Below, piece after piece: positions 13,579 through 41,760 of a stretch of 64,000 nucleotides of DNA (position 1 is the first letter of the stretch; each line of letters begins with the position of its first letter). Source of the DNA: Candidatus Taenariivivens baikalensis (lineage in GTDB: Bacteria > Omnitrophota > Omnitrophia > Omnitrophales > Aquincolibacteriaceae); assembly GCA_009691445.1 (NCBI GenBank), contig SICL01000006.1:2486-66485 (forward strand), read 5' to 3'. The notes beneath the pieces are model-generated. The model was not told the origin of the DNA, ran no database searches, and saw only the letters and a list, made by a program, of their open reading frames with translations. The position numbers and the translations under genes are program-made.

Positions 13579-13745
13579 GCAGTCGGCAGTAAGCAGTAGC
13601 CAGAAAGCAGTCGGCAGTTAGCAGGAGGCAGTCTGCACTAAGAATATTTTTTGAGATTCGTCTTTTCGAATTAAGTTTTTAATCTTTGTTTTCTGCCTAC
13701 TGCCTCCCTGCCACCTGCCGACTGCTTTCTGCCTACTATTTCTCT
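13579..13745. repeat. Large imperfect hairpin of inverted GGCAGTN heptamer arrays around an AT-rich spacer, just downstream of the GT2 gene and upstream of the giant ORF.
   Basis: ggcagtcggcagtaagcagtagccagaaagcagtcggcagttagcaggaggcagt ... actgcctccctgccacctgccgactgctttctgcctact read directly. Confidence 0.6.
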
Positions 13746-13874: not shown

Positions 13875-16800
13875 GTGACTTCTACACGCTCCTATTTTTA
13901 TTCACGGAAATTTCCAAGAAAATTAATTGCATTTCTGACTGCACTTTTCTTCGTCCTTGAAAGTTTTTTTGTAACCCCTCAGACTTGGGCCGCCGCTGTT
14001 CCTTTCGAAGTTCAAGTACCTGCTTCCCTCGATTTAAAACTTTCTCCTGAACTCGGGACAATTGAATCTCTCAAAACCGGTTCTGGACCGCTCATCATTC
14101 ATATCCAGGAAGCACACGGCAATTATGAAACTCAAAAAAAAATCCAGGGTATTTTGCACTCCCTTCACTCTCAGTACGGAATCGATCGCATTTTGCTGGA
14201 AGGCACTGCCTTTAAACTCCACCCAGAACTCGCCCGGTTTTATCCTGAAAATCCCGCACTGAATGAGAAAGTCCTTGAGGCGCTTGCCAAACAGGGAATC
14301 GCAATTGGTCCCGAACTTTTTCTAGCCAAAACTCCGGAGGCCGAGGCGTACGGGATTGAGGATGTTAAACCCTACGTTGCCAATGGCGTTGCCTTTAAAG
14401 AAGTCCTGATTCAAAAAGAGAAAACCAAAAAGTTCCTCTCACTTCTCGATCAGCAGATCAGAGCCTTCAGTGGAACCTACCTGAACGATCCCCTCCGGCG
14501 TTTTCTAGATCGCACGGCCTCGTTTGAGAATCATCCGGACACCTTGAATGATCCGCTGAATATTTTGAAGCTCCAAGCAAAGGAAAATTTGGCGCTTGAC
14601 CTCGAAAGTCCGCTTGCTCAGTTTGACTGGCCGCAGCTGGTGCGTTTGAATGTGCTCGCGGAGATGGAAGGGAAGTTTGAAGGGGGAGCATTTGCGAAAG
14701 AGAAGGAAGCATTTCTTAGAGCAATCAAGGCTTATACGTGGAAGGAAGAAGGAAGAGGGAAGAAGGAAGAAAAAGAGAGAAAGACTTCTCTTCCTTCTTC
14801 CATCTTCTCTCTTCTCTCTTCTGAATTTTCCACTCCCGCCCCCCCCAATCTCGAAACCCAAATGGAATCCCTTGTTTCTCAGCTTCCGAGCGATTTTGAT
14901 TACAAAGCTTATCCCAACGTCAATCGATTCATTGGTCACAAGCTATTAGCCGCAGAGTTAAAAGGAGATGCGCTGCTCAAGGAAATCGAAATACTCACGG
15001 CTAAGATCACGGACAAGCTCGCCAAGACGAAGGAAGAGAAGGAAATCGTTGAGCTTTTGAAATCGTACAAATTGCTGAAGAAGTTATTTGCGCTGGAGTT
15101 AACGGCGGAAGAATATGAGCAAGTGGTAAGCCGTCGGCAGAAGGCAGTCGGCAGTAAAGAGCCGGAGAAAGGCAGTTCTGCCTACTGCATACTGCCTACT
15201 GCTTTCTTGTCCCGATTCGCCGCTCTCAACCATGAAAATCGCATCAAGGACTTGAATTTTCGAGTGGGTTCAAAAATTGACGCTTTGTACGAAAAGGCGC
15301 TGGAGTTTTACCGTCTCGCCAAAGAGAGGGACGGAATCATGATTAAAAATATCGAGAAAATCCTTCGGTCTGAAACCCGAAATCCTAAACTCGAAACTCG
15401 AAACAAATCAAAAATTCAAAATCAAAAATTCGAAACGACACAGAAAAGCAGTTCCGTTTTAGATTTGAATCACTCGAATTTTGAATTTATTTCGGATTTC
15501 GGATTTAGAGTTTCGAGTTTGCCGAAGGCGGTGGTGGTGATTACTGGCGGTTTCCACTCCAAACCCTTTGCAACCTACTTCAAAGATCACGGCTACAGCT
15601 ACGCGCTCATTACTCCCAAAATGATTTCTACGGAAGGTCGCGAGACTTATGTGGATTTTATTCTTAAGAATTTTTCTCCAGCCCAGACTTCAAATTTTAA
15701 AATTGCACCTAGGGTCATGTCAACACCCTCCGAACTCCTCAGCCTTGGTTTCGGATCAAAAAATATTCAGAGAATGCGATCCGAGGTGAGAGGAATTTCC
15801 AAAAAAGACTACGAGAAATTGGCACACGATGCTCGAGATCCACGTGCGCGCCGAGGCTGGGTCCAGCCAAAGACTTCTGTAACGGGCAGACGGTATCACC
15901 GCCGGGGAATCGGCCAAGCGGCTTTCCGAGACCGCTCTCAAGTTCGCTCGGAGCTCAGGACTCAAGGATCTGAACATTTGCTGGCAGATCGAATGACCAA
16001 AGCTTTGCTTCAAGCCGATCCGGATATATCAGGTCAGGCTGGTTTAGATGTTGCTCATATCAGGGGATCAGCGTCTGCAGGTTCGATTCTGAAGGCTTTA
16101 GAAACTTTGAACACTGAAGAGTTTAAGGCCCTTCGATTGGACCTTAAAGAAAAGTTCGAGCAACAGCTTGCAACGTTTGTGGCTATCAAACCTCATGCGC
16201 TTAAGGAAGAGGCTGCCCTTATTGAGGGATTTGTCAAAGCAGGATTTACGGTTCACCTTGGACCCCAGGTTCAATTCGACGAAATCAAAGCCCGTAATTT
16301 TTACCGGGCGCACGCCTTTGAACCTTTTTTTATTTCGCAGCTGCTTCCCGAGATCACAAAAGGCCCTGCCCGCATTTTGATTCTCGAAAGGGCGTTAGGA
16401 AATGCCGTGGCGGAGGCCCGGAAGGTTGTGGATCAAATACGAAGTGACCGGGGAGTGACGAATAAAGATCCGCAAAATTATGTCCACGCCTCTGATGACG
16501 GCGAAGAGGGATCTGCCTGGCGTGAATCTGGAATCGCGGTTTCAACCTCGGAAGAAATTATGGAAAATATTTCTCAGGCTATTGAGGCGTCAGCTCATCC
16601 TTATGATCAATTAAAATCTGCCCAAAGTCTTGTTGCGATAGGTCAGGTTGACCCTCAAGGAAACGGGCGAAAACTTTTAGAAGGTTTGAAAGTTCCATTC
16701 GGTTTTGATTGGGAGCGCGATTCTGTAGCGGCTAAAAAAATCTTAGAACGTGCTCTCGTCATTCCACAAAAACGATCTGAATTAAGGAAACCAGAAGCAA

Positions 16801-19800
16801 GGCAGGTAAGAAAGAGTAATCTGCAGAGGGATCAGAGTCCAGCTTTGGCTTTGAGGCGGTTGACATCGGTAGGACGGAATATTTTATCTTTAGGATCTTT
16901 ATTCATTTGGATTCTCCGTCAAATTCCAACGTGGTTTTCAAGCCTTGTTACGCGGCGAAATAATTCCGGGACTGCAACTTTCACGGCATCTTCAACACCG
17001 ATTAACCTTGATTCAATCCGATCAAATCTTTCATCGGCCGCAGCTCTCCACTCGCAAAACCCGCGGACTTCACCGGCAATAACGCTTATACCCGATCTCA
17101 GTGATTCAAGTAAAGTTCCCACTTCTGTTGGTGTGTACATTTTATTTTCATCGTTGTTTAGCATGGTTCGATCCTCCCCTATTTTCAAATGGGGGCGTAG
17201 TCTACTTTCACTTCAAGGAGCTGTCAATATTAATTTTAGTCAATTTTTAATTCCTTATGAATTATATTTAAGAGCTGGTCGCTCCGAGGTGCGGCAGGGA
17301 TGGAAAGACACTTTGTTTCAGTTTGGACAAACCGTTGATTTATCATCCGTTTCAGGGGAACGGATTGCATCAGTTTGGAATCTGAGCACTCATTATGCAC
17401 TTAAGTTTAGCACGACCCTGAAGCAGCTTGGAGAAGGCGCGATTTTTCGACTATTCTTGGATGATCTGGATAGAACTGACGTTATCTTGGAGCAGGCTAG
17501 AGCTGGGGGAATTACGGACGCTGTTCATTTCAGAGAATTTCAGGATCCTGCCCTCCGCTTGGCTGCTATGTCCTATCTTGTTACCGGAACGGTGATGTCG
17601 CGAGAAGAAATGATCAGGCGGTTTGACAGTAAAAGGCGTACGAATCAGGATGAATATAACCTTGCAGGAGCACAAGTAGCCTTGGATACCATCCTGAACG
17701 CATACCGGGATGAAAATTCATTTGTATTTAATGACCATCAAGTAAGAGCTTTCGGATTGGAGTTGCATCAATTGAAAGGAACAGAGCTGAACCCCAGTTT
17801 CGCCAAAAGACTTCTTAGCCGCGCCCTGCATATCGTCCTTGATCCAATACCCCGCTCTGAACTTCGGATGACGGGAACGCCGAAGCTGAAGAACATTATT
17901 CCGACCCCGACTTTTTTCATGAAAGACGCAAAGGGAAAAATCATTGTGAAGGAAGCGGCGGTGAGGGCTCACATGAGATATCTCAAAGATACGTTGCACG
18001 GCGAATACATCCTCCCAGCCGGAGCGACGGGGGAATTCCAGAAAATGAATCCGGAGTTGAGACGCAGTGCGATTGAGATTACCACTCGCGAAGCCAAGGC
18101 CGTCGGACTTATCACCTTTACGAATGTGACGGGAGATGATGAAGAAGAAACCATCGGAAATGCGCTGGCCGCTCAAGCGGCAGGTGCGAATTTTCTTGTG
18201 ATTGCGGCGCTTTATTTTTTGGAGAAATCGTCGGACATCGAAGCCTTTATCCCGAAGATGAGAGAGCTCGGTGTCACGCTTCCACTCGCGCTGTACAATA
18301 ATCCCGGGCTTCCCAAGATTCAGGCTTATGACAGTACCCGCGAAAAGGAAATTACTTCCGATGCTGTAGGGGATTTATATCGAAAAGAATTGATCTTTGC
18401 CATCAAAAATTCCGGAAGCGCAAAACTGACCGAAGAATATATCAGGACCGGAACCCCGACCTATATTGGCGATGAAAGCGCGCTGGACACGGCTTCCAAA
18501 ATTAGAGGCGACAAAGGCGAATCGCTTTACGGCCTGGTCGGTTCCTCGGGAAATTTTATGGCAATTTTCCAGCGCATTGCGGAAACCAAAAACGACGAAG
18601 TTCGGGCCGCGCTCCAGGCAATCATCAATAAGATTCGGCCAACCCTGATTGCACTTAATTTAGATCCGACTCGCGGCCCTCCGCATAAAATTGCTCAAAT
18701 TATCAAATATCTGCTTTCAAAAAAAGATCCTGTGATGAGCGATGATGTTTCACTGGACGGCACCCCCGCGCTTACAGAAGAGGAAATTACGGCCATCAAT
18801 GCCATTCAGCCTCTTCTAATGACTTTTCCTGAGATTCAATTTCAGACGAATGTTGAGTCGCCGTTTATGAAGCTGGAAGGGGGCGATTCTATCGACTTAA
18901 GAGGATTGGTAGGACAGTTGACCGAGTTTCGGGATCGCTTGATAGAAGGTTTGGGGAAATGGGGGAATAAAAAATTATTTATTGGAGTCAGTTTTCAGAA
19001 AAAAGGCGACAGAGAAATCGAAATCTATGACACGACTTCTCAGGGCCTGATCGCGACGATCAACGCTACTCACTATAAAGTTGGGTTTAAACTTATCGCC
19101 GAAACACTGAATCCTTATCTTCTGCCGCAAAATTTCTCAGCGCCTTCTGCTCCAGCTCCCGCCACTCGTTTGGATTCCGCAGGCCCTTCAGTTCCGAACG
19201 CCGCCGTCACCGAATACCAAAAACTTTTTAATGACCTTACGGGGTCGCTTGGAAGCGGTTGGGATATTACAAGTGAGAATGGGCATTGGCTCAAAATTGC
19301 AGTTCCTCAGGGCGGGACGACGGATCCAGCGAATCCTGCCTTTGTCGGCTTTGCTTTGAATTTTGAGCGCGAGATCTTGTTTGGCTGGGGTACGTTTCGT
19401 GTCCACTTTTACCCTAAAGAGGGAAAACTTGCCGGTATTGTTTATCGCGAAGGAAAATTTTATGCCGTGGGAGATTTTGCTTCGCAGGATCAAAACCAGA
19501 TCTTTGCCTTTTTAAATATCGAGGAATATCGTGCAGCTTCTCATAGCTATACCGAACTTGCGTTCCTTTCATCCCGGCGCTCGGAATTGCGGATGAATCG
19601 ACATGCTTTTCTTAAAAAGGCTGCCGTGGTAGCGACGGGGATATTATTTCTACCAAAGACCCCATCATTGGCGGATTCTCCTCGTGTTTTACCTCCCATC
19701 CGGCTGATACCGAGTTTGAATCCTTTTCAGCCAGAACTTGATGGTTTGATTGACGCTGCCGAAAAAATAATTCCACGAAAGTTGGGTGCAGGTTTTCCGG

Positions 19801-31800: not shown

Positions 31801-34800
31801 ATCTTCAAGACCAAAAAAGGCCAGATGGAAAGCCGGCGGTCTCAGATCGGGAGCTTGATTTCCGGGTGCGTGCGGTCAAAACCTCCGTGGATTTGGTAGA
31901 TAAAGTAAACGGCGCGCTCGGCGGCGAATTTTTTTATCATAATGCCGGGCAGAATCCCGCGGAACTTTCGGTGCCTGAAAGAGTGGGGGAACGGGCAAAC
32001 CGTCTGATGCCTCTGCAATCGAATCTGATCAATCCCGTGACCCGCGAAAAAATGCAGATTCGCCGCCAACCCGGAGGAGACGCCTACCGTCATTATTATG
32101 ATTTGTACCGATCTTCGCAAGGCGATCTGCGATTCGAGGGAGTGACGATACAGCTGCTTGCCGACTCGTTACTGGTTGATAACTTAAAAATTCCTGCGAT
32201 TCAAGGATATCGGGAAGACGGTTATGCCATTCCCATTTTAAAGTGGGCGCTCGAGCTTGCCCAAAAAATTTATCCGGATTCAGAGTATCCTTTACTGATT
32301 TCTCAAGACGACGTGACGATGCTGCCGGTGCTTGACGGTATTTTTGACCCGGCGTCGATTGAGCTCCGAAATAATATGGATGGAACCTGGGGGCATCTCA
32401 AAGATCCAGCCTTCAATTTGTATCATATTTTCGGAGGTTCTTACAGCCGTGAGCCCAAAGACGAGGGCGCGATTATTCTTGCCGACCCTCAGTCTTATTT
32501 CCCTTTGGGAACGGCCCAAATCCGTAAGCAGGGTGAAAATTATTTGCTTGTTTCTTCAAGTCTTCCCGCCGCCTCCATAAAATTTCAAGGGCCTTTGATC
32601 CGGGCTTCTTATCGAGGAAAGCCGCTGCGCATTATTTTCCCTCATCAAACGATGGCGATTCGCGGTCTCCCTAAAAAGTGGGATGCCGACGCGGCCGCGG
32701 TCACACGCCGTTTGGAATTGCCGGCAACACTTGCTGAGATTAATATACTTATTGACGGAGGGAACATCGTCGATGCCATTCGATCATTTACGCGCAGTAG
32801 AGCCTCTTTAGATTCTCAATCTGTGAACATGATTGCCGAGCGTCTCAGGCAATCTTATTTGGATCCGCTTGTCGTTGTAGGGAAACTGGGAGGCACTTCG
32901 ATGGCTTTTGAGACTGCGTCTCCCTACGGACTTCTTGGATACCGCAATTCATCCCCGACAATCACGAAACCGGACAAAGCGGATACAGCCGTAGAAGTGG
33001 TTGAACGGATCGTGAAAACGATTTTGGATGTGATGAAGCCTTATGTTGAAGAAGATCCCTCAGCAATCAATCGATTTATGGCGATTCGTTTTAGCGCACC
33101 CGGTTATTTTGATTCGGAAGGAAACCTGATCGAGGATGAAGAAAATATCCCAAAAATCAAGGCCGGATTTAATTTCAGCAAGGAAGTTTTTCAAGCCTTA
33201 ACGAGCGCGCTTCAAAGGAAGGGATGGACCCGCCACGAGTCTCTTCCTCCGATCGAAGTCACTGTCGAACATGACGGGACAGCCGGAGCACGTGGGGAAA
33301 TCTCCGAGTTTGGGACTTTTCCAGGTGACGGCGATCTTTTTTTTCTGATCGCAGGCACAGGCATCGGAAGCAGGCGCTTTAAGGATGGAAAACCTTTTTT
33401 TGGGGATAAGCGCGTTCAGGGGCTGGCGAATGAAGGTCCTCATCACCTCCAGTTTAATGAAAGCAAGGAGCATCCGGATTTTGCTTACCGCGCTCTTCAA
33501 ACCCAAGGCTTTCCTATTAAACGGTTCAAACCGGGGCATGCCCGGCAAATCCGGGTTCCAAACCTTGAGGAAATTTTGCAGTACGGGCCTCATTTGATTG
33601 ATCTTGAGGATTTAACTTCCGGACCCAATATTGAAAAATATGCCGCGGAAGTTTTGAGAAAATTTAATCAGCATAGCGAGCATAACGCTGAAAAAGCTGA
33701 GCAACGAAAACTCGCTTTCGATATTTTAAACGAAGTCGGCTTCAATTTTGAAAGTGTTTCCACAAAACTGCTTGGAGAAAAAGCCAGAGCCGGAAATACA
33801 CTTGCCCAGAGAATCATTCGGCAAAGGGCGCGTTTGCTTGGGATTGGTTTAGCGGTTATGTTGGTTGAACAATATAAAGTCTTTGGAGCGGAAGAATTCG
33901 GAATTCCGAAGCATGTGATTCTTGGGTCCGGAGTTTCCCAGCTTGGTTCTGTTTTTCTGGATGCGGTCCGGGAAGGTTTTAAAGAAAGGCTGGATAAATA
34001 TTATACTGCCCGTCAGGAATATACCTTTGACCCCCATAGGCAGATTGTTCTTTCCAAAGTGATGGACGACACCGGCCGTGAATTTTACGGATTTCTTCCC
34101 ACCCCAACCGAAGCAGCGGCCTACAAACAAAAACTCGGATCTCTCTCACGTTCTGAAGCGCGGATGGATCGACGCGATTTTATACAATCCTTTATCGCTT
34201 TGACTGAAAGTGCTGTCTCTTTGGGCGCGGCCTTGGGTATTAGTTATTTGATCATCCTTCCGCGTTCGGAAATGCGAAAAAGGTTAGCCGGTCAGCGAGT
34301 GAACCTGCCAACGGATTTAAATCCCGGGCACGCGATTACCCGCTCACCGGCTAACCCTGACAGACGCTCGGAAGTGCGGGCGGTCAATACGGAGGGAGCG
34401 ATTCCGGTCAGGTCGTTTGATCTTTCTGCAAACCCCTCCAGAACAACCGAGGCAGGACTTTATCTGATCCGGCGTTTAGGATTACTCCAGACTTCAGTGG
34501 TGCCGCTTTTCCAAGCTATTCTAAAGAAAGAGGATCCCGATCCAGCCGTGGAACTGCTTGTGACAAGCCGGGAAGGTCTTTTCTTACAACCTCCCTCTGA
34601 TGAATTTATGACGGTGAGAAGGTTGAGTGGGCGCGATTCGCTTTACCGTCTGGATCTGAAAGATAAAACCATCACGCCTTTGACCTTTCCCGGCGTGTTA
34701 AATCCTTTCTCTGACGGAAACGGAAAACCCTTTGCACCGCTTACGCCTTTTCCTGCGGAACAAGGGGCTGTGCATTTTGCCCTTGTGGATAGAGATCTCA

Positions 34801-37800
34801 AACTCTGGATTTTGAATCCTTATACCGCGGCAGTCGTCAATCACGATTTAAAACTTCTTGCCGAACAACGGCACAAAGTTGTTTTGGATCCTACAAATCT
34901 GGATTCCATAAGTATCCGCCAGGCTTCAAGTGAAAATCTGATGGTGGTGATTCGCCCGACAGTCAAGTTGTGGGACACTGCCCCAAAATGGCCGATTCCG
35001 CTTTATTTTTCCGCAAGGGATGGAAGTGAATTACCGAGAGATTCTGGATATAGCCCTGACGGTGTTGACAGGATTTATTTATGGAGACCTTTGTACGACC
35101 AAGCGCGTCACGATCTTCGATCCCGTTTTGATTCCGGGAAAAAGGATATTTCCGTGACCGTCCAGGTTTCTGCGCTCACGAGTTCTGCCTTAGCAAATCA
35201 TCTTTCTGTGGAATGGCGTGCCCCAAACGGCGTGTGGGTGGAGGGATTTCTTCCGACTGCGTCCATTCCCGGAGCCTCAAAGGCTCATGAAAATCTTCTT
35301 TATCAGAATCTGAAGGTTTATCCAGGTAAAATTCATAGCGACCATTTTGTTTTTTTTACCGAAGGGCCTAAATCCGAAATTGCGAGTGAATTGGAAGCGC
35401 TATCGTCAGGTCAAAGGACGGCACCCGCCATTCCACCGCGCGTTTCTCCTTTTTATGAAAGTGAACCGGATTTTAGCGTCCACTCTTTTTCCAGAGAAGG
35501 TTATGAATCGGCAGCCGCTTCTCAAACCAACGAAGGGGTTTTAGCGGAATTGACAGATGCGCTCAATCAATTTTCGAACCGGGTGATTCTTGTCGAAGTT
35601 ATCGGAGCTTCGTTTAAAGGAAATGGTTTGAATGTGATTTATCAGGGTGTGCAGGGATTTATTCATAAAAATCATTTAAGGGGATCAGTAAGTGACTACC
35701 CGCGTGGAAATCATATTTCTGTTTGGGTCATGACGGTTGACCGGACTCGGAATCCGTCCCGGCCGTTCGTGCAGTTTTGTGAAGTCCACCCCCGTTCTGA
35801 AGTGCGGAATTCAGGGGTATCACCGCAGTCCGATAGTGATGGAGTTTACCGGGAATTACAAGCAATGGATGCTTTGGGTCTGGATGACCGGCCATACCTG
35901 AGTGTGCAAGTCCTTGGAGTGAGTCGAAGGGGTACGGGTGTAAATGTTGAATATAAGGGAGTACCAGGATTTATTTTATACAACCTTCTTAAGAAACCTG
36001 TGCGTGAGTATCATCCTGGAGATTTCATTGATGTAATTTTTCACAGTATGAAACAGTTGCGGAATTCTTCGCGTCCATTTGTAGAATTTTGGGAACGCCA
36101 GCAGGAAGGAGGATATCGTTCCGAAGTACGCTCCGAAGTGCGCAGCCTGTCAGCCCGTGAACTGGTGCACCCGTTAATCGGTACACCGGAAACCGGCGCA
36201 CAGGCTAACCGGAATACGCGTTCAGAAGCGCGGATGGATCGACGCGATTTTATACAATCCTTTTTCGCTTTGGCTGAAAGTGCGGTCTCTTTGGGCGCGG
36301 TCTTGGGTATTAGTTATTTGATGATCCTTCCGCGTTCGGAAGTGCGAAAAGGGTTTTCGGGACAGCGAGTGAACCTGCCAACGGATTTAAATCCAGGGCA
36401 CGCGATTACCCGGTCACCCGTTAAACCGGATCGCCGATCGGAAGTGCGTTCTGCTTCACCAAAGCCTCGCATCCTTGTCATTGAAGTGAATGCTGCCTTG
36501 TATCGAGTGGCGGAGAAAAGCTTCGGCGAAGTGTTTGAGGCTTTAAAGTCAGAAATTGAAAAAAAGCTGCCACTTGGCGTGAATGTTGGGAATTTCGTTT
36601 CGATGACAGACGGTAATGTCGTTGTGATGGGTAGCAATGATTTGCTTGTGCGTCAAAGAAATTTTTCTAATCCATTTGGGGGCGCCAAACTGACAGTTCG
36701 CTACGCAGATCTTCGCTCGGAAGTCAGGAGCTTAGGAATCCATTCGGCAACGCAGATTGTTCCTCATCTTGGAAAGTTTGATGGAGCTTTGACGGCAAAC
36801 GTTAACCACCACTCTCATCGGCACTCTGATGATCATATCGCTCTGAAAGACGGCCGGTTGATCACCGTTCTGGTCGATGATGAGCCGTATAAAAGATCCA
36901 TTGATTTGACTTTGACGGACCCTGACGACTTAAGCAAACTCTACGTTAAGGTTCGCAAGGTTGAACAGGCGGGTACGTGGGATGTGTTATTAGCTGACTT
37001 ACGGGAAAATGTCACTTCGATGATTAACAAGTCTGATTCGCTGGGTGAGGTTGCGAAGAGCCTGACGGCACTTAATCTCGCACGTTATCAATCCAAGCAG
37101 AAGTCTATTCTCTATGTGGGGACGTTTTATCAAATAGATGAAACCCTCCGGCCATTTGCCTTAATGATTAAGGATGGTTTGACAGAAAATCAACTGAGGT
37201 TCAATTTTAATTTTTCGAATCGAATGATTGCCGATGAAAATGTTTCGAATCCCTTAAAGATTCCATCGATGTGGAGTACGGAGAGTGTTTTCAAGATCAA
37301 GTTGAAGGTCAGGGAAGAAAAGATTTCGTCGGGTAAAATGCCGGTACTGGCTATTATGCGATTAAAAGCACCCTCTTCTCATTTGTCAGATATCCGGGCA
37401 CATTTACAGCAGCTGGGAATTCAGTATTTGATGCGGGCCGAAGTTTCTTATGCCGACGGCACTAAAATAGATCTGGAGCCTCAGGTAAGGGTGGCCAGCC
37501 TGGAAGCCTTGCGGAATTCTCCTTTTGATTCAAGTGTCCGTAAAGTGCTGGGGCAGTTGAAAGGGTTGCGAAGTCTAGCGCTTGCGGCAAGAAGCGGCAG
37601 AACTGACGGATCACTTTTGGATGGATTGGAACGTTCTGAAATTCGGACGGACTTGCCCGTTCAAGAATTTGAGGATCAGGGGCAGTTGATCAGCCGGATT
37701 TTCCGGCAGGGGATTGTACCGCTGGTGAAGATGGGCGAGGCCGCCCGTGCGTGGGTGGTAGCTGTTTACGGAAAAACGAAGACGACAGCGAGGGAATCGT

Positions 37801-38423
37801 CTGCAACACTTCAGGATTTGAGGCAGGCGGCACAGAATCAGCTTGCGCGTTTTTCTGCACTCAACCGGGTTTTGAATCAAACCCATCCAAGATCTTCGTC
37901 GCAGCCGATCATTTCAAAGATTTCCGGAACGCCGGGTTTAGCGTCGGCGGCTTCCATCATTCCCTTTTTACTCAGCCGTCCGGATCAACGATATATTATT
38001 TCGACAGATCTTTCAGTGTCCGATCGCAATCGTTTTTATCTGGAATTTGATGCCTACGTTCAAAACCATCTTGGCGTAAAACTTCAGCAGGTTCCGAATC
38101 TTCAGATTTTGTCACAAGGCTCTGTGGAGGCTTTGGCGAGTGAGTATCCGCAAGGAGTGGTCGTGCTTTCGTCGGAGGAAGCTTCTCTGGATTCTCTGAA
38201 AAGTTTATCTGTCCCGGCGCTGAAGATTCTTCTCCCGGATGCGAATCACAGCCCGTACGTTGTGGGTATGTCGGATCTTCTCAGCCGCAACACGCTTGCT
38301 CAGCTCTTGGGCAATTCCAGCCGTCGAATGCTCCCAGCCGCCAGTCTCTTTTCTTCCGAGCGCTTAAGCCGGATCTTAAGTGATATGCGCCTCTATCAGC
38401 AGTCCTTCCAAGTCGCCGCCTAA
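13875..38423 (+). CDS. Giant multidomain protein (8182 aa, 24.5 kb, GTG start). Signal-peptide/TM-like N-terminus. Tiki/TraB/GumN-like split-motif domain at about nt 14060-15700. DapA/NAL-type class I aldolase domain at about nt 17880-18760. Internal tandem duplication 24778-26845. Gfo/Idh/MocA oxidoreductase domain at about nt 30820-31890. ROK-like domain at about nt 32870-33900. At least 28 in-frame R-S-E-[VLMIA]-R motifs.
   Basis: Single uninterrupted ORF in the track. Motifs read directly: HIQEAHGN...VVVITGGFH (Tiki/TraB-like); AGATGEF...GANFLVIAALYF...LALYNNPG...AIKNSGS (DapA-like, including a Schiff-base Lys motif); VLGGMGAVA...AYVEKP (Gfo/Idh/MocA); VVGKLGGT...HDGTAGARGE...AGTGIGS (ROK-like). 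Confidence 0.75.
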   Translation: MTSTRSYFYSRKFPRKLIAFLTALFFVLESFFVTPQTWAAAVPFEVQVPASLDLKLSPELGTIESLKTGSGPLIIHIQEAHGNYETQKKIQGILHSLHSQYGIDRILLEGTAFKLHPELARFYPENPALNEKVLEALAKQGIAIGPELFLAKTPEAEAYGIEDVKPYVANGVAFKEVLIQKEKTKKFLSLLDQQIRAFSGTYLNDPLRRFLDRTASFENHPDTLNDPLNILKLQAKENLALDLESPLAQFDWPQLVRLNVLAEMEGKFEGGAFAKEKEAFLRAIKAYTWKEEGRGKKEEKERKTSLPSSIFSLLSSEFSTPAPPNLETQMESLVSQLPSDFDYKAYPNVNRFIGHKLLAAELKGDALLKEIEILTAKITDKLAKTKEEKEIVELLKSYKLLKKLFALELTAEEYEQVVSRRQKAVGSKEPEKGSSAYCILPTAFLSRFAALNHENRIKDLNFRVGSKIDALYEKALEFYRLAKERDGIMIKNIEKILRSETRNPKLETRNKSKIQNQKFETTQKSSSVLDLNHSNFEFISDFGFRVSSLPKAVVVITGGFHSKPFATYFKDHGYSYALITPKMISTEGRETYVDFILKNFSPAQTSNFKIAPRVMSTPSELLSLGFGSKNIQRMRSEVRGISKKDYEKLAHDARDPRARRGWVQPKTSVTGRRYHRRGIGQAAFRDRSQVRSELRTQGSEHLLADRMTKALLQADPDISGQAGLDVAHIRGSASAGSILKALETLNTEEFKALRLDLKEKFEQQLATFVAIKPHALKEEAALIEGFVKAGFTVHLGPQVQFDEIKARNFYRAHAFEPFFISQLLPEITKGPARILILERALGNAVAEARKVVDQIRSDRGVTNKDPQNYVHASDDGEEGSAWRESGIAVSTSEEIMENISQAIEASAHPYDQLKSAQSLVAIGQVDPQGNGRKLLEGLKVPFGFDWERDSVAAKKILERALVIPQKRSELRKPEARQVRKSNLQRDQSPALALRRLTSVGRNILSLGSLFIWILRQIPTWFSSLVTRRNNSGTATFTASSTPINLDSIRSNLSSAAALHSQNPRTSPAITLIPDLSDSSKVPTSVGVYILFSSLFSMVRSSPIFKWGRSLLSLQGAVNINFSQFLIPYELYLRAGRSEVRQGWKDTLFQFGQTVDLSSVSGERIASVWNLSTHYALKFSTTLKQLGEGAIFRLFLDDLDRTDVILEQARAGGITDAVHFREFQDPALRLAAMSYLVTGTVMSREEMIRRFDSKRRTNQDEYNLAGAQVALDTILNAYRDENSFVFNDHQVRAFGLELHQLKGTELNPSFAKRLLSRALHIVLDPIPRSELRMTGTPKLKNIIPTPTFFMKDAKGKIIVKEAAVRAHMRYLKDTLHGEYILPAGATGEFQKMNPELRRSAIEITTREAKAVGLITFTNVTGDDEEETIGNALAAQAAGANFLVIAALYFLEKSSDIEAFIPKMRELGVTLPLALYNNPGLPKIQAYDSTREKEITSDAVGDLYRKELIFAIKNSGSAKLTEEYIRTGTPTYIGDESALDTASKIRGDKGESLYGLVGSSGNFMAIFQRIAETKNDEVRAALQAIINKIRPTLIALNLDPTRGPPHKIAQIIKYLLSKKDPVMSDDVSLDGTPALTEEEITAINAIQPLLMTFPEIQFQTNVESPFMKLEGGDSIDLRGLVGQLTEFRDRLIEGLGKWGNKKLFIGVSFQKKGDREIEIYDTTSQGLIATINATHYKVGFKLIAETLNPYLLPQNFSAPSAPAPATRLDSAGPSVPNAAVTEYQKLFNDLTGSLGSGWDITSENGHWLKIAVPQGGTTDPANPAFVGFALNFEREILFGWGTFRVHFYPKEGKLAGIVYREGKFYAVGDFASQDQNQIFAFLNIEEYRAASHSYTELAFLSSRRSELRMNRHAFLKKAAVVATGILFLPKTPSLADSPRVLPPIRLIPSLNPFQPELDGLIDAAEKIIPRKLGAGFPVIRRIQEGEYRAKILFLSGNLSWDLKHLKQMLADFSGQSLAKPEDWLILPEFLRHYQNVTLENFHGLPHEVAILLAQAKRIPMQDPFVSILQPETVRKILAEAKRRKLDLSREEILAYLLISWTQGMHPVSFGNNSVALAIQFLRDAWKKENDAPGVQELYEAAVSFVKKMNDSEFRVKMNRINKLNAEFLQKNPKAKDNLAWEWGKHYLALGETKSFTREELLGHWVIHTALQQFNGKIPDFMEGMIILMEKGWKAAGVSYEELHRGFLGWMPKIGQRDLSLKSKAAEELVLETYSRLTKSSLAATLSRSSAKNVIALLHAPPEAREGIEKVFQEHLQRLSSQRPELRLGAPRSELRQNRPPFGSFHEFVEKHAVKIETQNSLMVYVGKGKGKEDSKEMTEWAAARALIDANIAHNKLFGVDGQKKRFVAVFATGSTMIGIYKKVIILADQHEEKEGIDFSTARSYNLDENGGLAPDHPQSYRYFMNHHLFNGLTERIKEKAFSLDHTYVFPGNLPPAEYPAEFERVHKEIESYGGIDFLYLGSGENGHFGFVEPPYLINLDFAEFLLKNPKQSLDALFTEKPDEYRFLRDSNDFILEKSIQGDSRALTQRILDLRNQIRGALHEGLEKGGRNGDMAQDFRTARGRYYEEEASKKRFKLAAKWYHTNSFPVKIKAALKKYGRRLLHEQMTTIYFKEGSVLENLREPMELPTVQFKTLKELFATPAKLSFLNAKTPIVNSRLVENFDTVPLWAPTMDGGLVFSAKKIIQVITGPMKTDAALKIVTGPVSHDVPSSYLQLMQPGSTIILLDQAAAQKILLYQASRSEVRGDVSKGASEEIIAKSVSVLEMLDANFRLVQRANEWLVHNNELFPTKLLRFKYMHPIKGGVNMAQRQKGRWLAPEITQGFRRAKAEWEDGVPKEIFEILPSQKLNLDALLENIEALFSRRFLRSSSAPKWFKEFSEVVKASADEKIVELVSVERSSEDEAKRKVAAVLLKIKFDLLGIAQEKAIQAYRAFMMNDYENAAKFIKEAQEASDEGQAKRLKRPPQEPLYNKDEAIKEAFKSALKALEKLQTRSEMRSVSIPDAVEGLRPAIAETEEVWGGPMWKKDELFDFLKQSLEPGRNPIQNKIVSIFVPRAVVPNEARMGLTPAGVKILRKLEALLRKVDPEIQIKIYVEEGSGVNRDTGETYYSDFNYSLEGAVVLPYGVFVDKAGAVGPHKIVVDIKEPPPSAFPFLKDAVLFTFLHPASSKKMTQKLLKTVRAGFAYESIFFKNQRQVAKVPILDPASRAAGKATAVRYASLVKYRKDHPAKELTGLAWLADKIKYLFLFVFTFGRVRISESDEVEIIFRENMNLKSLEEMKNLQGILDGKTVTILGGGIVAEEAMLYLSGFGARVYVTEVEEGRRQELAELISGKELQEKITVLTRGNPKQPIEFETKIRDALENSNAIIGTISIPGARTPIEITRALYKKLVSKKTLAVRDESNHPGDGQANAEFARKLEFVGVPSIDQGGDIEGARPAKFKHGWLRDWFGVIWFAVTNIPCAGDPRETSEKMQLAKMTYLTLLILTELMGEKFLLQVFQKFPEMKPGMVMLRGHLTNAKVAAALRLPFVAPEPLIGSPVRSEVRSLNTTGAIPDAVRFSDFLLRLLPEITKSFSRRSEVRSTGVTKQDMAPLIFSKLLKGFVHRTQAEAGDGAVSYSVIPERAEFTRWLNIQQARASEELILKGLQSMERAGVYLYDGITLEELENQHKYYLGHATSVILMTLGAALGFWRVLENQSLENVQLEKLGLATNQLDSFAVFLRSLGEIFNKQILPTGIQGRALAEQMNEILARMGSLTRFDVNDPIHPLPSPLKKTPMPETAAVISPVIRIELNAENYRGKTVREFLDAYSPKIMSQLPEGSELYGFNTVNIAGRIVSGANKLEYQITGKKLVFSYPNQKARSEVRSLLAREPVHPLTSIPGMDDVSFLTLLKGFDRLTQAEAGEGAVSYSVIPESPDLTRWLNIQEARSSEALILHELQIMERAGVYLYDGITREELKYYLGNETAVILMTLGAALGFWRVAKGSRLEDIQFKKLGLTTEYINAFALILRRDLARLISDIGINRDDGQYQVGEFFLYTNTKKIKGAAIQDIINRSTGYLFSALLKKRINLHEEFSMRELVNLPDFPLGHYCLIRLLLAGQILEYWKVEASSINNFSIRLLPAGLEILAEQSFQQSALRESVARPESPQSRPSEITTVATPAPVFAFTPLPPKPVQIPSAAKPAVSSNVIRIELNAENYRGKTVKEFLDQHRQKIMSQLPAGSELYGFNTVNIAGTIVSGHHKLDCKITGKNLVFFYPNPKARSEVRTVLFDDNFQFSKRPEADVAAEKQYADAKIEEFKTVVQAQFGQSGAAVHAKVKEATDAWLNLINEFVKDLEPISVDDEGDPLYKRNGTYLRIITFDIRPKKLYQFYWERSNPEGEADPYERFDFFDVAIQNGVIIDFFPFTDVEIIRGEGGRASRQDLAILGQGISFIDFENEKRKEGLFSDLHAKLVDEFQRIKSLRDDRGLDVTSWPTGREPDAKLTQIRSRIINLKNQLVERIVFQEVESAGRILSASDREFNSAVDIAVLMGTIINRFRKLVMQAQVQSLDDLRKLAFDIAPELARSEVQKGLAGEQVRESTGLNPGHAITRSPAKPDRRSELRNNLVQEFQVIYKGQNTAVTVREMNLEDLESGEHPHFESAPLSQLLKTTWMSRGKDGRDQTQEAYVNRNGQVFLENEYGLQLLAEKERGGNKGDSNFGSMRQDREQGFFQSILIREAIILLTNLREPPKPKQVASAPEVVHRKYSPFGYRGGSAPKVQRNLPQPQKPEPVIQAQAAMLEWFDEAENRHRRVVLITDRGKYPVAREGVFGESSPRPKVETNFVFDQDRMNQPDDLEMLRALDLQTSIIKKYIAPKVFAAAPPAPSLAAVAAAPPTNPKPWQTRLAATYVSQREMEAELSEEGRFSGAYTKEGMFRSSIFHGKDFQEGVFVEGRMREGRRGALKEAGFNGVFHREGEFYVGIEMQIDSKTALIKPEKIRAIIQKKDGWFVACEIPLMLYSDAANSKFFSDWADIMAKALRKLVREHPLENQPYFEGKLQEIFPPAVMLPFPESMSARPQTFPEQVVSDASTIEIAPGFFAFIHAEPQGGEYDPWTRRRIRPTHYEYSVRFKDHLSRAVEKKGYNIRDRRETVLGYQVTIKPGDNNSSAKVSAVKTVGPVEVQLLVDGSEKQPKREIPPIKISSLQVNRSNPQDASISLEGKSIAIGETQQIGRFDIYFKGYAQSTIEGVPPAVILIILPRSEVRKGLAGQRVNLPTDLNPGHAITRSLVKPDRRSEVRSTPLVSDQSRDVSKAFIPQAFKPFYFYDRERRPSVESQVPASVFLLDPRVDASLNKNEAHGVFLKLKSKGDRVLIYDYHVTPNPYGQTAEEISNRSAYINHLEVNLDEHGHLESFMIHKGDLSRHRRHPWIFGDVEAWLSAQKGKPFNISNPEFPKQIQPGARRLPAVPQAGRVRTMDAKNPNWVTPEDSGLELLVSRLGDPAQPVVFNRLQQMQEKILEMGPVAWSFLLDLYPSFTRQPKIQQEIKMILLQAGPAVIPVLQGYIDHRREPQAVLATELLHQINPFIVDDHAESPIAHISEMNLPLPSNLEPANLIVLGGMGAVAQVFYETHMKALAQRYGVTLTAVDLMPQDAALARIKAENLPYQTYIQVPNRPLNGPETDFMKQLLAQNPKGVLILTRPNSHLDFTRWALNNGIKAYVEKPFSLPEDTVTMAKLHERFERAIFAIDFFFDNESALKGFEMLQSNFFGDLVSIKGSMIESNLIENGRGWLVDRKINGGGMGPDMLVHLVALAELLLTKFKPSSDPSRHLSLEQFKLDYQKSKQWRYRGAPKGQETYLHAIGNLGHVPVDLDAGKGLHECAYFMILQGTKGTLEINLGNHKKNQKPFLELRSRSGEIVYHEDFGADIGYAGAVRKIFEHLQDQKRPDGKPAVSDRELDFRVRAVKTSVDLVDKVNGALGGEFFYHNAGQNPAELSVPERVGERANRLMPLQSNLINPVTREKMQIRRQPGGDAYRHYYDLYRSSQGDLRFEGVTIQLLADSLLVDNLKIPAIQGYREDGYAIPILKWALELAQKIYPDSEYPLLISQDDVTMLPVLDGIFDPASIELRNNMDGTWGHLKDPAFNLYHIFGGSYSREPKDEGAIILADPQSYFPLGTAQIRKQGENYLLVSSSLPAASIKFQGPLIRASYRGKPLRIIFPHQTMAIRGLPKKWDADAAAVTRRLELPATLAEINILIDGGNIVDAIRSFTRSRASLDSQSVNMIAERLRQSYLDPLVVVGKLGGTSMAFETASPYGLLGYRNSSPTITKPDKADTAVEVVERIVKTILDVMKPYVEEDPSAINRFMAIRFSAPGYFDSEGNLIEDEENIPKIKAGFNFSKEVFQALTSALQRKGWTRHESLPPIEVTVEHDGTAGARGEISEFGTFPGDGDLFFLIAGTGIGSRRFKDGKPFFGDKRVQGLANEGPHHLQFNESKEHPDFAYRALQTQGFPIKRFKPGHARQIRVPNLEEILQYGPHLIDLEDLTSGPNIEKYAAEVLRKFNQHSEHNAEKAEQRKLAFDILNEVGFNFESVSTKLLGEKARAGNTLAQRIIRQRARLLGIGLAVMLVEQYKVFGAEEFGIPKHVILGSGVSQLGSVFLDAVREGFKERLDKYYTARQEYTFDPHRQIVLSKVMDDTGREFYGFLPTPTEAAAYKQKLGSLSRSEARMDRRDFIQSFIALTESAVSLGAALGISYLIILPRSEMRKRLAGQRVNLPTDLNPGHAITRSPANPDRRSEVRAVNTEGAIPVRSFDLSANPSRTTEAGLYLIRRLGLLQTSVVPLFQAILKKEDPDPAVELLVTSREGLFLQPPSDEFMTVRRLSGRDSLYRLDLKDKTITPLTFPGVLNPFSDGNGKPFAPLTPFPAEQGAVHFALVDRDLKLWILNPYTAAVVNHDLKLLAEQRHKVVLDPTNLDSISIRQASSENLMVVIRPTVKLWDTAPKWPIPLYFSARDGSELPRDSGYSPDGVDRIYLWRPLYDQARHDLRSRFDSGKKDISVTVQVSALTSSALANHLSVEWRAPNGVWVEGFLPTASIPGASKAHENLLYQNLKVYPGKIHSDHFVFFTEGPKSEIASELEALSSGQRTAPAIPPRVSPFYESEPDFSVHSFSREGYESAAASQTNEGVLAELTDALNQFSNRVILVEVIGASFKGNGLNVIYQGVQGFIHKNHLRGSVSDYPRGNHISVWVMTVDRTRNPSRPFVQFCEVHPRSEVRNSGVSPQSDSDGVYRELQAMDALGLDDRPYLSVQVLGVSRRGTGVNVEYKGVPGFILYNLLKKPVREYHPGDFIDVIFHSMKQLRNSSRPFVEFWERQQEGGYRSEVRSEVRSLSARELVHPLIGTPETGAQANRNTRSEARMDRRDFIQSFFALAESAVSLGAVLGISYLMILPRSEVRKGFSGQRVNLPTDLNPGHAITRSPVKPDRRSEVRSASPKPRILVIEVNAALYRVAEKSFGEVFEALKSEIEKKLPLGVNVGNFVSMTDGNVVVMGSNDLLVRQRNFSNPFGGAKLTVRYADLRSEVRSLGIHSATQIVPHLGKFDGALTANVNHHSHRHSDDHIALKDGRLITVLVDDEPYKRSIDLTLTDPDDLSKLYVKVRKVEQAGTWDVLLADLRENVTSMINKSDSLGEVAKSLTALNLARYQSKQKSILYVGTFYQIDETLRPFALMIKDGLTENQLRFNFNFSNRMIADENVSNPLKIPSMWSTESVFKIKLKVREEKISSGKMPVLAIMRLKAPSSHLSDIRAHLQQLGIQYLMRAEVSYADGTKIDLEPQVRVASLEALRNSPFDSSVRKVLGQLKGLRSLALAARSGRTDGSLLDGLERSEIRTDLPVQEFEDQGQLISRIFRQGIVPLVKMGEAARAWVVAVYGKTKTTARESSATLQDLRQAAQNQLARFSALNRVLNQTHPRSSSQPIISKISGTPGLASAASIIPFLLSRPDQRYIISTDLSVSDRNRFYLEFDAYVQNHLGVKLQQVPNLQILSQGSVEALASEYPQGVVVLSSEEASLDSLKSLSVPALKILLPDANHSPYVVGMSDLLSRNTLAQLLGNSSRRMLPAASLFSSERLSRILSDMRLYQQSFQVAA
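14739..14822. repeat. In-frame heptamer-array hairpin (GGAAGAN arrays inverted) inside the giant ORF. Encodes WKEEGRGKKEEKERKTSLPSSIFSLLSS.
   Basis: ggaaggaagaaggaagagggaagaaggaagaaaaag ... cttctcttccttcttccatcttctctcttctctcttc. Same heptamer as the intergenic element at 7081-7168. Confidence 0.55.
15130..15208. repeat. In-frame heptamer-array hairpin (GGCAGTN) inside the giant ORF. Same family as the intergenic element at 13579-13745.
   Basis: ccgtcggcagaaggcagtcggcagtaaag ... ggcagttctgcctactgcatactgcctactgctttc. Confidence 0.55.
15372..15521. repeat. In-frame heptamer-array hairpin (GAAACTC / GAGTTTC arms) inside the giant ORF. Encodes a 7-aa-periodic peptide LETRNPK LETRNKS ...
   Basis: gaaacccgaaatcctaaactcgaaactcgaaac ... 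tttcggatttcggatttagagtttcgagttt read directly. Confidence 0.55.
24778..26845 (+). repeat. Internal tandem duplication of a module of about 290-400 aa (24778-25642 and 25629-26845). Each copy is bounded by CGCTC[CG]GAAGT (RSEVR) motifs, and the second copy carries an extra insert.
   Basis: Repeated peptide blocks LLKGF..RxTQAEAG[DE]GAVSYSVIPE...MERAGVYLYDGIT...AVILMTLGAALGFWRV and VIRIELNAENYRGKTV[RK]EFLD...GSELYGFNTVNIAG..VSG..KL...ITGK.LVF.YPN.KARSEVR appear in both copies. Confidence 0.6.
27741..27857 (+). repeat. In-frame ~115-bp module Y, copy A. Flanked by RSEVR-coding direct repeats and has internal dyad symmetry (ttagccggtga / tcaccggctaa). Encodes KGLAG.QVR..TGLNPGHAITRSPAKPDR.
   Basis: Near-identical at nucleotide level to the copies at 29767, 34263 and 36333. 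Confidence 0.6.
29767..29881 (+). repeat. In-frame ~115-bp module Y, copy B.
   Basis: cgttcggaagtgcgaaaagggttagccggtcagcgagtgaacctgccaacggatttaaatcccgggcacgcgattacccggtcactcgttaaaccggatcggcggtcggaagtgcg. Confidence 0.6.
34149..34378 (+). repeat. Composite in-frame repeat: module X (RSEARMDRRDFIQSF.AL.ESAVSLGA.LGISYL.ILP, about 115 bp) followed by module Y copy C. The same X+Y composite recurs at 36219-36448.
   Basis: Two stretches of about 230 bp with roughly 90% nucleotide identity, read directly. Confidence 0.6.
36219..36448 (+). repeat. Second copy of the X+Y composite in-frame repeat (module Y copy D).
   Basis: See 34149-34378. Directly preceded by a tandem RSEVRSEVRS at 36115-36140. 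Confidence 0.6.
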
Positions 38424-41629: not shown

Positions 41630-41643
41630 ATACCAAAAATGTA

Positions 41644-41760
41644 ATAACCAAGATACAAGAAACAAGATACAAATAAAGATACAAAAAAACAATAAACCAA
41701 TCTTTGAATTTTTGAAATCTTGTTATTTATTTGGACACTTGTATCTTGTCTCTTGGTTAT
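41644..41760. repeat. Intergenic heptamer-array hairpin element, copy 2 of 4, between cusB-like and cusA-like genes.
   Basis: ccaagatacaagaaacaagatacaaataaagatac ... tttggacacttgtatcttgtctcttgg. Confidence 0.6.

Follow-up and report, generated by a model that had tools for sequence, protein, structure and literature searches.

A giant Omnitrophota gene family with an R-[S/A]-E-x-R punctuation motif, and its reading as a possible polyprotein

The window analyzed here is a 64,000-nucleotide (nt) stretch of DNA from Candidatus Taenariivivens baikalensis (contig SICL01000006.1, positions 2,486 to 66,485 of the forward strand), in which one giant open reading frame (ORF) encodes a protein of 8182 amino acids (aa). 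The giant ORF is a real gene, and the family to which it belongs has not been delineated before and has so far been found only in Omnitrophota. The layout of this family is shown by comparison of its members: a Sec-type signal peptide and a head of ~600 aa are followed by variable, fast-evolving modules, each corresponding to about one whole protein, that are split by the pentapeptide R-[S/A]-E-[V/L/A/M/I]-R, and the chain ends in -[A/S]A. The best reading of this architecture, and the one toward which we lean, is that the giant product is a polyprotein precursor that would be cut at the motifs.

A gene family with a conserved head and a recurrent motif

The first-pass annotation of this DNA had described an uninterrupted 24.5-kb ORF at 13875-38423 encoding 8182 aa, and both coordinates and size proved exact. 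An in-frame stop codon lies at 13824, 51 nt 5′ of the start, the ORF contains no N bases, and its G+C content is even (0.44-0.49 along its length). We considered whether the ORF might be an assembly artefact or a decayed fusion, that is, a misjoining of separate genes or a nonfunctional read-through pseudogene, since the source sequence is of metagenome type, two relatives (L034 and L060) have apparent frameshifts, and palindromic elements are inserted within the coding sequence. This explanation is scarcely credible. No stop interrupts the 8182 codons, the composition is uniform, the palindromic insertions keep the reading frame, and the same architecture recurs in P0129, a complete protein of 2528 aa, and in ~140 loci that were assembled independently. 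Furthermore, both ends of the ORF are typical of the family, with the conserved head at the N terminus and -AA at the C terminus, and their presence on a single ORF counts against a chimera. The only repeats that chunked self-comparison of the protein revealed are a tandem duplication (aa 3635-4385) and a 40-80-aa unit that is present four times, so the ORF is not a collapsed repeat or a repeat array, a worry that the first-pass annotation had raised.

A word-indexed protein search with residues 1-634 recovered only seven relatives, all on short contigs, and those with names belong to Candidatus Omnitrophica. By scanning one genome per species, we found head relatives at 204 genome loci. Every named locus is from Omnitrophota, the phylum for which the first-pass annotation had mentioned giant multidomain genes, and several metagenome-assembled genomes (MAGs) hold two or three copies. 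The best identity to the head in the window is 42-47%. Among 79 aligned heads, H81, E109-G110, E162, R485, and G558-G-F-H561 are invariant, and each head opens with a Sec-type signal peptide; the signal-peptide or transmembrane (TM)-like N terminus noted earlier is accordingly of this type in the window, as judged from its sequence and from a helix at residues 15-32 of an AlphaFold2 (AF2) model. The head is always N-terminal, and the first motif comes no more than 200 aa after GGFH in 59 of 71 ORFs. In the giant, residues 605-634, which join the head to motif 1, are disordered in the AF2 model.

The genome carries at least two family genes within 64 kb, because a second one runs off the end of the window (Table 1). 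Directly upstream of this second head gene is a gene for an MbnB/TglH/ChrH (DUF692)-DUF2063 fusion (59255-61383, forward strand, E=6e-108) that is preceded by a 99-aa ORF; together they may constitute a modification locus of the type that acts on ribosomally synthesized and post-translationally modified peptides. Tandem family genes are common (L008, L014, L026, L039, L046, L053, and L070), with the giant ORF ending 150-490 nt before the next head gene, or ~4.7 kb before it at L014. At L034 and L060 the giant ORF goes on in another frame after a short overlap, which reflects either a sequencing frameshift or recoding. A divergent gene located ~200-300 nt upstream of the head gene in one subgroup of loci (L071, L073, L074, and L076-L080) encodes a conserved protein of ~700-790 aa that has no Pfam match and ends in -KAA or -KSA.

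The C-terminal -[A/S]A is found in 16 of 22 complete head ORFs and in 6% of all neighboring ORFs (p ~2e-15). Twenty neighboring ORFs share this ending, and seven of these are the tandem giants upstream of the head genes listed above, all seven of which end in this manner. A replication set gave -xA at the end of 13 of its 15 complete ORFs, and P0129 ends in ...SMAA. When C-terminal modules were compared with each other, no homology was detected, and just the last two residues are common. The ending might act as a degron of the ClpXP/ssrA type, as a signal of the Prc type, or in type I secretion.

The first-pass annotation had named RSEVR just as a place at which to split the protein for searches, but this motif turns out to be the central feature of the gene. 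The pattern RSE[VLI]R occurs 23 times in the giant versus 0.05 expected from shuffles, and outside the head there are 27 matches to the broader R[SA]E[VLIMATS]R. An additional RSETR at aa 498 was not counted as a motif because it resides inside a window-specific palindromic DNA insertion in the head. In an unsupervised 5-mer count of 81 family ORFs, RSEVR, RSELR, RSEAR, and RSEMR, then RSEIR, lead the tail 5-mers by number of loci. At 80 genome loci, where head ORFs mostly exceed the 10-kb flank (>3900 aa), motifs number 1.79 per 1000 aa of head ORF versus 0.023 in other frames, and ordinary neighboring genes carry 0.05 per 1000 aa, which is the chance level. Sixty independent, nonduplicate metagenome loci replicate this result (1.70 versus 0.05 motifs per 1000 aa). 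Nearly all motifs outside head ORFs fall in a tandem giant ORF or in a frameshifted continuation.

The motifs are spaced at about one per 380 aa, and the median module is 186 aa long. The Arg and Glu residues are essentially fixed, with Lys at Arg1 in 5 of 341 and at Arg5 in 1 of 334 sites that match the rest of the motif, whereas the flanks carry ~0 bits. Lineage variants exist, with only RAEVR used at L004 and RAExR at L030, and this pattern of RSE and RAE forms suggests that the motif may co-evolve with whatever reads it. Synonymous variation of the motif codons, together with a 3-nt periodicity of conservation, points to selection on the peptide.

Whole domains fit between the motifs. At L066, motifs at 1101 and 1587 flank a hexokinase (1120-1578), and motifs at 3132 and 3424 flank an adenylate kinase (3163-3339), with a receiver domain after 3424. 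At L052, a 2-hydroxyacid dehydrogenase (2582-2880) is bracketed by motifs at 2499 and 2902, and a NagB-like domain (3512-3751) is bracketed by motifs at 3496 and 3782. In the giant of the window, the NagB-like module ends 8 residues before motif 8. The tails are hypervariable, such that only 81 of 3240 locus pairs share any block, and 60% of the homology blocks start within 30 aa after a motif (control with random positions: mean 14%, maximum 26%), while 39% end within 30 aa before one (random, 14%). That the motif is a module boundary is thus well supported by these sequence comparisons.

The residues that follow the motif have properties of protein N termini. Directly after it, Pro (4 observed versus 23.8 expected), Phe (2 versus 21.6), Tyr (0 versus 13.3), and Trp (2 versus 6.2) are depleted, and Thr, Ser, Met, Asn, and Ala are enriched; just before it, Pro is enriched. 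The depletion of Pro, Phe, and Tyr recurs in a second set of loci, but that of Trp does not (4 versus 2.8 expected). Tat signals stand straight after a motif in RSEAR-MDRRDFIQ, which is present twice in the giant of the window, and in RSEAR-T-MNRRKFLRQ at L045. Likewise, of 162 hydrophobic peaks, 41 begin no more than 30 aa downstream of a motif (14.5 expected). Of ten lipobox-like sites, six follow a motif at a distance of up to 45 aa, five of these six in a clear signal-peptide context, in proteins that contain only 0.07% Cys.

Proposed cleavage and its alternatives

Motif-bracketed whole proteins, some of which have their own Met and Sec or Tat signals, point to a processed polyprotein. According to the N-degron rule, certain N-terminal residues are destabilizing, and the near-exclusion of Pro and scarcity of Phe, Tyr, and Trp after the motif are as expected of a scissile bond behind the second Arg, if the new N termini avoid such residues. 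Moreover, Met-initiated Tat and lipoprotein signals that are hundreds to thousands of residues within a chain would not work, and these internal signals make little sense in an exported single chain, nor do cytoplasmic-type enzymes that need ATP or NAD.

We propose that the motif would be the site of a site-specific endoprotease, which would most likely cut after the second Arg, and that the 8182-aa precursor would thereby give rise to ~25 proteins and short peptides, each of which would fold or be exported independently. More speculatively, the head with its invariant His, Glu, Arg, and His residues might be the processing enzyme, akin to a viral leader protease, and the -AA end might mark the terminus for recognition, as a degron or a secretion tag would.

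Several observations weigh against this proposal. Cleavage is argued from sequence statistics alone, and motifs are few or absent in some family members (L008, L017, and L044). The depletion of bulky residues after the motif is partly a general linker effect, since it is present also at positions -1 and +2. No conserved protease or transporter gene was found beside the family at 81 loci, where the neighbors present just housekeeping synteny at one orthologous locus (lpxA, fabF, rpsA, tyrA, and DAHP synthase); among the other genes of the window there is no candidate Arg-specific protease and no transfer-messenger RNA. Finally, codon usage at the motif is biased beyond what the peptide needs. 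Arg1 is encoded by CGY in 84% of cases versus 42% in the background and by AGR in 2% versus 25%, Ser2 is encoded by TCN in 95% versus 66%, and the codon of the variable position ends in G in 59% versus 29%; Arg5 is near background (81 ORFs).

This codon restriction at Arg1 and Ser2 hints at a component at the level of nucleic acid or of common descent, and it could derive from common descent of a linker cassette or from module shuffling that is driven by microhomology. At its extreme, the ~14-nt consensus CGY TCB GAA NYG MGN might itself be the selected element, as a site for recombination or microhomology-driven shuffling or as a signal for RNA processing or internal initiation, in which case the peptide would be a by-product. 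Homology blocks that stop at motifs and the hypervariable tails are consistent with this idea, as are the common GTG, ATG, and TTG codons at the variable position and the excess of Met after the motif (16 versus 9.6 expected). Nevertheless, we judge it quite improbable. The information sits on codon positions 1 and 2 with only weak constraint at the wobble position, and the asymmetric residue preferences at -1 and +1 are hard to explain from DNA. We also weighed, and set aside, the possibilities that the motif DNA forms a small RNA hairpin, represents a Shine-Dalgarno sequence that is translated, or provides an internal start codon, given that the wobble position varies, Arg5 is kept by way of both CGN and AGR codons, position 4 commonly takes Ala, Thr, or Ser codons that are not start codons, and no purine-rich, Shine-Dalgarno-like signal was found upstream. 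As an account of how the motif spread, a nucleic acid signal would be compatible with proteolysis.

The first-pass annotation had pictured a single secreted or anchored, sugar-active megaprotein of ~900 kDa, and the current literature likewise takes such proteins to be single polypeptides with a signal peptide and TM segments. On this account, one uncleaved chain would be exported or anchored via its N-terminal signal, the motif would serve as a linker, hinge, or docking site, and the internal hydrophobic segments would be TM anchors. The Sec signal at the N terminus of every family member agrees with this account, as does the lack of a conserved protease partner around the family loci, and a 39,678-aa Omnitrophota protein has been detected by proteomics according to the literature. 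However, an intact chain and one cut after Arg are indistinguishable by tryptic proteomics, and linkers normally do not need two invariant Arg residues, an invariant Glu, and exclusion of Pro at exactly one flank. A single exported chain also leaves complete, Met-initiated Tat and lipoprotein signals deep inside the protein, and it would place hexokinase, adenylate kinase, nucleoside diphosphate kinase (NDK), and a response-regulator receiver in a periplasm without ATP and partners. An uncleaved megaprotein is rather unlikely in our estimation, and it is not the best reading of a protein in which motifs bracket whole proteins, some with their own Met and export signals. On a role in attacking other cells, which the first-pass annotation had mentioned as an inference, the analysis turned up neither supporting nor contrary evidence.

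If the polyprotein reading is adopted, the head becomes a speculative candidate for the protease, a role that we consider doubtful. In its favor, it is the only universally conserved part and is always first, a motif mostly comes soon after it, it has the invariant His, Glu, Arg, and His residues, and it probably has a fold that is shared with some proteases. Its Sec signal makes it an awkward candidate, because the head would be extracytoplasmic, whereas working internal Tat and Sec signals and enzymes that need ATP or NAD would call for cleavage in the cytoplasm.

The first-pass annotation had assigned the head to a Tiki/TraB/GumN-like domain with split HxxxH and E...GGFH elements. At the fold level, the core probably resembles the Tiki/TraB/erythromycin-esterase/ChaN superfamily, and its His and Glu residues follow a superfamily-like order (GxxH...E...GxxH), but membership in a family is unproven. 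In searches with PF01963, PF05139, and PF04187, the sole match was to PF04187 (ChaN) in one of nine members (E=0.066), a profile search of the PDB with the head alignment gave no match, and a Foldseek search of the PDB yielded coiled-coil noise from the helical insertion alone. The head of this family differs from members of the Tiki/TraB/PrgY/GumN/erythromycin-esterase/ChaN superfamily in its ~300-aa helical insertion and in its invariable location at the start of a giant ORF.

Modules, repeats, and neighbors in the window

Domains in the giant were identified by Pfam, NCBIfam, and PDB sequence searches and by retained sequence motifs (Table 1). A mosaic of enzyme-like modules with long regions of no similarity had been described in the first-pass annotation, and most of the protein indeed has no Pfam match. 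The C-terminal half has no PDB sequence relatives at E<=0.01, and permissive-threshold Pfam searches of the head and the dark segments added nothing. The NDK, DHDPS, NagB, N- and C-terminal AlaDH/PNT, Gfo/Idh/MocA, and ROK-like domains occur once each, so that none dominates.

All four of the domains proposed in the first-pass annotation are at least weakly supported, although the three clearest ones (NagB, AlaDH/PNT, and NDK) had been missed. For the DapA/NAL domain, for which GTTGE-like and Lys-like motifs had been cited, the motifs are retained, but the Pfam score is borderline (22.2 versus 22.1 bits) and the Schiff-base Lys is outside the aligned region. For the Gfo/Idh/MocA and ROK domains, the top matches come from the claimed families and are collinear, but all are below curated cut-offs. 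The NagB module, judging from its PDB match (8e-20), is clearly homologous to NagB, but its function is not assured, with a score of 111 bits that is below the trusted cut-off of 236.9 for the TIGR00502 equivalog. The closest relatives of this module are free-standing NagB proteins of ~260 aa, and no close giant-embedded copy is present among its relatives. Module 7, which begins with the internal signal peptide at aa 1907, has only three relatives among 1.84 billion representatives; all three are weak, two are embedded in other large proteins, and no free-standing homologue that starts at its Met was found in this set.

Table 1. Positions of the giant ORF, its signal peptides, modules, motifs, and inserted elements, and of the second family gene in the window. 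pLDDT, predicted local distance difference test.
Feature	Coordinates (nt)	Strand	Basis or remark
Giant ORF, 8182 aa, GTG start, TAA stop	13875-38423	+	ORF call
Sec-type signal peptide, aa 1-41: basic n-region, hydrophobic core, TWAAA site	13875-13997	+	Sequence; AF2 helix 15-32; all 79 aligned heads start alike
Conserved head, aa 42-634: split alpha/beta core and ~300-aa helical insertion; H81, E109, E162, R485, GGFH558-561 invariant	13998-15776	+	
Heptad-repeat (GCAGT-type) palindromic element, in frame in head coding sequence	15126-15207	.	Specific to window; low pLDDT
Second in-frame palindromic heptad element (AAACTCG type), gives spurious RSETR at aa 498	15369-15520	.	pLDDT <50 for aa 501-550
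Motif 1 RSEVR (aa 635), directly after head	15777-15791	+	Motif scan
Motif 2 RSELR (aa 691)	15945-15959	+	Motif scan
NDK-like module core, aa 767-894, NYVHASD kept	16173-16556	+	Pfam PF00334 E=2e-10, above cut-off; PDB matches
Motif 3 RSELR (aa 967)	16773-16787	+	Motif scan
Motif 4 RSEVR (aa 1136)	17280-17294	+	Motif scan
Motif 5 RSELR (aa 1327), Met directly after	17853-17867	+	Motif scan
DHDPS/NAL-like (DapA-type) aldolase core, aa 1359-1563; GATGE, LYNNPG, FAIKNSG kept	17949-18563	+	Pfam 22.2 bits vs 22.1 cut-off; PDB E=8e-5
Motif 6 RSELR (aa 1902)	19578-19592	+	Motif scan
Internal Met-initiated signal peptide MNRHAFLKKAAVVATGILFLPKTPSLA, aa 1907-1934, directly after motif 6	19593-19676	+	Sequence; homologous block in P0129 likewise after RKELR and hydrophobic segment
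Motif 7 RSELR (aa 2329)	20859-20873	+	Motif scan
NagB-like module, aa 2386-2532 and 2712-2791, split by ~180-aa insertion	21030-22247	+	TIGR00502 E=5e-32; PDB 2bkv 8e-20
Motif 8 RSEVR (aa 2799)	22269-22283	+	Motif scan
Motif 9 RSEMR (aa 3051)	23025-23039	+	Motif scan
Alanine dehydrogenase/PNT-like module, aa 3109-3448	23199-24218	+	PF05222 E=2e-11, PF01262 E=2e-14, both above cut-off; PDB 2eez 4e-15
Motif 10 RSEVR (aa 3599)	24669-24683	+	Motif scan
Motif 11 RSEVR (aa 3635)	24777-24791	+	Motif scan
Tandemly duplicated dark modules, aa ~3640-4385, up to 65-71% identity (best-aligned stretches)	24792-27029	+	Self-comparison; no Pfam match
Motif 12 RSEVR (aa 3919)	25629-25643	+	Motif scan
Motif 13 RSEVR (aa 4320)	26832-26846	+	Motif scan
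Motif 14 RSELR (aa 4657); before it degenerate RSEVQ (aa 4623) and 29-aa element copy	27843-27857	+	Motif scan
Motifs 15 and 16 (aa 5298, 5332), bracketing 29-aa element KGLAGQRVNLPTDLNPGHAITRS.VKPDR	29766-29882	+	Motif scan, self-comparison
Gfo/Idh/MocA-like region, aa 5713-5940	31011-31694	+	Three collinear Pfam sub-domain matches, E 2e-4 to 7e-3, all below cut-off; top PDB matches all this family, E 0.002-1
ROK-like sugar-kinase region, aa ~6456-6705	33240-33989	+	TIGR00744 E=5e-4, far below cut-off; PDB ROK glucokinases E 2e-4 to 0.07, collinear
Motifs 17-19, aa 6759-6835: RSEAR, MDRRDFIQSF...ILP (Tat-like hydrophobic peptide), RSEMR, 29-aa element, RSEVR	34149-34379	+	Motif scan, self-comparison
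Motif 20 RSEVR (aa 7307)	35793-35807	+	Motif scan
Motifs 21 and 22, overlapping RSEVRSEVR (aa 7415-7423)	36117-36143	+	Motif scan
Motifs 23-25, aa 7449-7525: second copy of Tat-like peptide and 29-aa element unit	36219-36449	+	Motif scan, self-comparison
Motif 26 RSEVR (aa 7614)	36714-36728	+	Motif scan
Motif 27 RSEIR (aa 7920); last module 258 aa	37632-37646	+	Motif scan
Family-typical C terminus ...SFQVAA-COOH	38415-38420	+	C-termini comparison
Second gene of same family, >=808 aa, runs off window end: signal peptide, head LVQDAHS...VEG...VIAGGFH, then RSEVR (nt 63715), RSEAR	61576-64000	+	

A 29-aa element, KG.AGQRVNLPTDLNPGHAITRS..KPDR, is unique to the giant gene and is present in four motif-bracketed copies (27741-27857, 29766-29882, 34149-34379, and 36219-36449), two of which are preceded by the motif-bracketed Tat-like peptide MDRRDFIQSF...ILP. 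If the motifs are cut, these element units would yield peptides of 34-38 aa.

The window also contains palindromes that are built of 7-nt repeats (GGCAGTN, AAACTCG, and GTCCACA types) and can form hairpins, at 13567-13737, 15126-15207, 15369-15520, 62051-62129, and 62404-62428; the pattern GCAGTNNGCAGTNNGCAG has 17 matches versus 0.16 expected. The intergenic element just upstream of the giant gene has a predicted RNA folding energy of -74.4 kcal/mol (z = -7.1), and the others are inserted in frame in the sequences that code for the heads of the two family genes, so that they are translated into loops of low confidence. Similar peptide insertions are present in the homologue P0007, and the elements recall the Rickettsia palindromic elements.

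The PEGA and GT2 neighbors reported in the first-pass annotation were located at 10442-11908 and 11905-13578, respectively. An AAA_14/DUF4143 ATPase gene (38420-39589, reverse strand) converges on the stop codon of the giant gene. Also near the giant gene are a CusB-like (HMBD and HlyD) and AcrB-type RND pair (40574-45049, forward strand) and a gene for a TolC-like OEP (3135-4478, reverse strand), which look like components of metal or drug efflux and not like a dedicated exporter of the giant protein.

Relation to known systems and significance

The giant of the window is a small member of the known giant multi-enzyme ORFs of Omnitrophota. It shares its phylum and a long ORF tiled with unrelated metabolic Pfam families with the 'multi-enzyme metabolic cluster' class (Nielsen & Lui 2026, 10.64898/2026.06.07.730766) and with the giant genes that include the Archaeovorins (West-Roberts et al. 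2023, 10.1101/2023.11.21.568195). Further likenesses are the presence of ROK, hexokinase, sugar enzymes, and receivers, an N-terminal signal, sparse hydrophobic segments, and tails that are mostly sequence-unique. At 8182 aa, it is below the size thresholds of these catalogues, which is 10,000 aa in the former. Dockerin, TSP3, C39 or S8 peptidase, and SecA-like domains, which are features of Archaeovorins, were not found by Pfam and NCBIfam searches over the whole giant protein. In the portions of the same two papers that were searched, we found no description of the head, the R-[S/A]-E-x-R punctuation, or the -AA end. In the literature collection searched, "polyprotein" is not paired with Omnitrophota, and a search for the motif strings returned nothing relevant among the top-ranked of 236 matches.

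By their mode of working, the closest analogues of the proposed precursor would be viral leader-protease polyproteins, MARTX toxins, and gingipain polyproteins, and the giant belongs to none of these. Viral polyproteins of the picorna-, poty-, and flavivirus type combine many unrelated mature proteins in one ORF, with short junction sites and an N-terminal leader protease. The giant resembles them in its recurrent site at each junction, the preference for small residues after the presumed scissile bond, and the conserved N-terminal domain. It differs in being a cellular bacterial gene that encodes housekeeping-type enzymes and exported proteins and has no homology to viral proteases.

The multifunctional autoprocessing repeats-in-toxin (MARTX) proteins are autoprocessing multi-effector toxins, and their RRSP effector is a structural match of the head. 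In contrast, the giant has no RTX repeats or cysteine protease domain, its site is based on Arg instead of Leu, its signal is of the Sec type and not type I, and its modules are metabolic enzymes and not toxins. A MARTX-type ABC/MFP pair dedicated to the giant ORF was not found in the window, where the neighbors are the CusB/AcrB-type RND efflux and TolC-like OEP genes noted above.

The RgpA/Kgp/HagA polyproteins of Porphyromonas gingivalis consist of few, related adhesin and protease domains, including the gingipain catalytic domain. They are bacterial precursors that are cut after Arg or Lys into several domains, as is proposed for the giant, but the latter lacks a C25 domain and combines a strict 5-residue site with ~25 unrelated modules.

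We also entertain, tentatively and as an unlikely generalization, that the Omnitrophota giants are phylum-wide, virus-like polyproteins that are cut at R-[S/A]-E-x-R, with the Tiki-fold head as a leader protease and -AA as a degron or sorting tag. Each ORF would then give rise to dozens of unrelated proteins, among them housekeeping enzymes and exported or lipid-anchored proteins that bring their own signal peptides. Cleavage, if confirmed, would to our knowledge make this the first case in bacteria of ordinary cellular proteins being produced as polyproteins on a large scale.

Few genes known from any organism are as long as the giants of Omnitrophota. The question of whether the giant proteins are cleaved has been presented as open, with the cleavage points unknown and structure prediction thereby blocked (10.1101/2023.11.21.568195). 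The family-wide junction motif makes this question directly testable and gives a rule for splitting giant ORFs for annotation and folding. Standard proteomics relies on trypsin and does not reveal a cut after Arg, and this may explain why such cleavage has gone unseen so far. If cleavage does occur, the topology, size, and function of the giants would have to be read differently. For a 122,534-aa giant, about one TM helix per 370 aa has been reported (10.64898/2026.06.07.730766), a value that matches the ~380-aa spacing of the motifs in head ORFs. If the giants of the whole phylum are indeed such polyproteins, the many TM helices reported in giants of >100,000 aa would largely be the signal peptides of single products.

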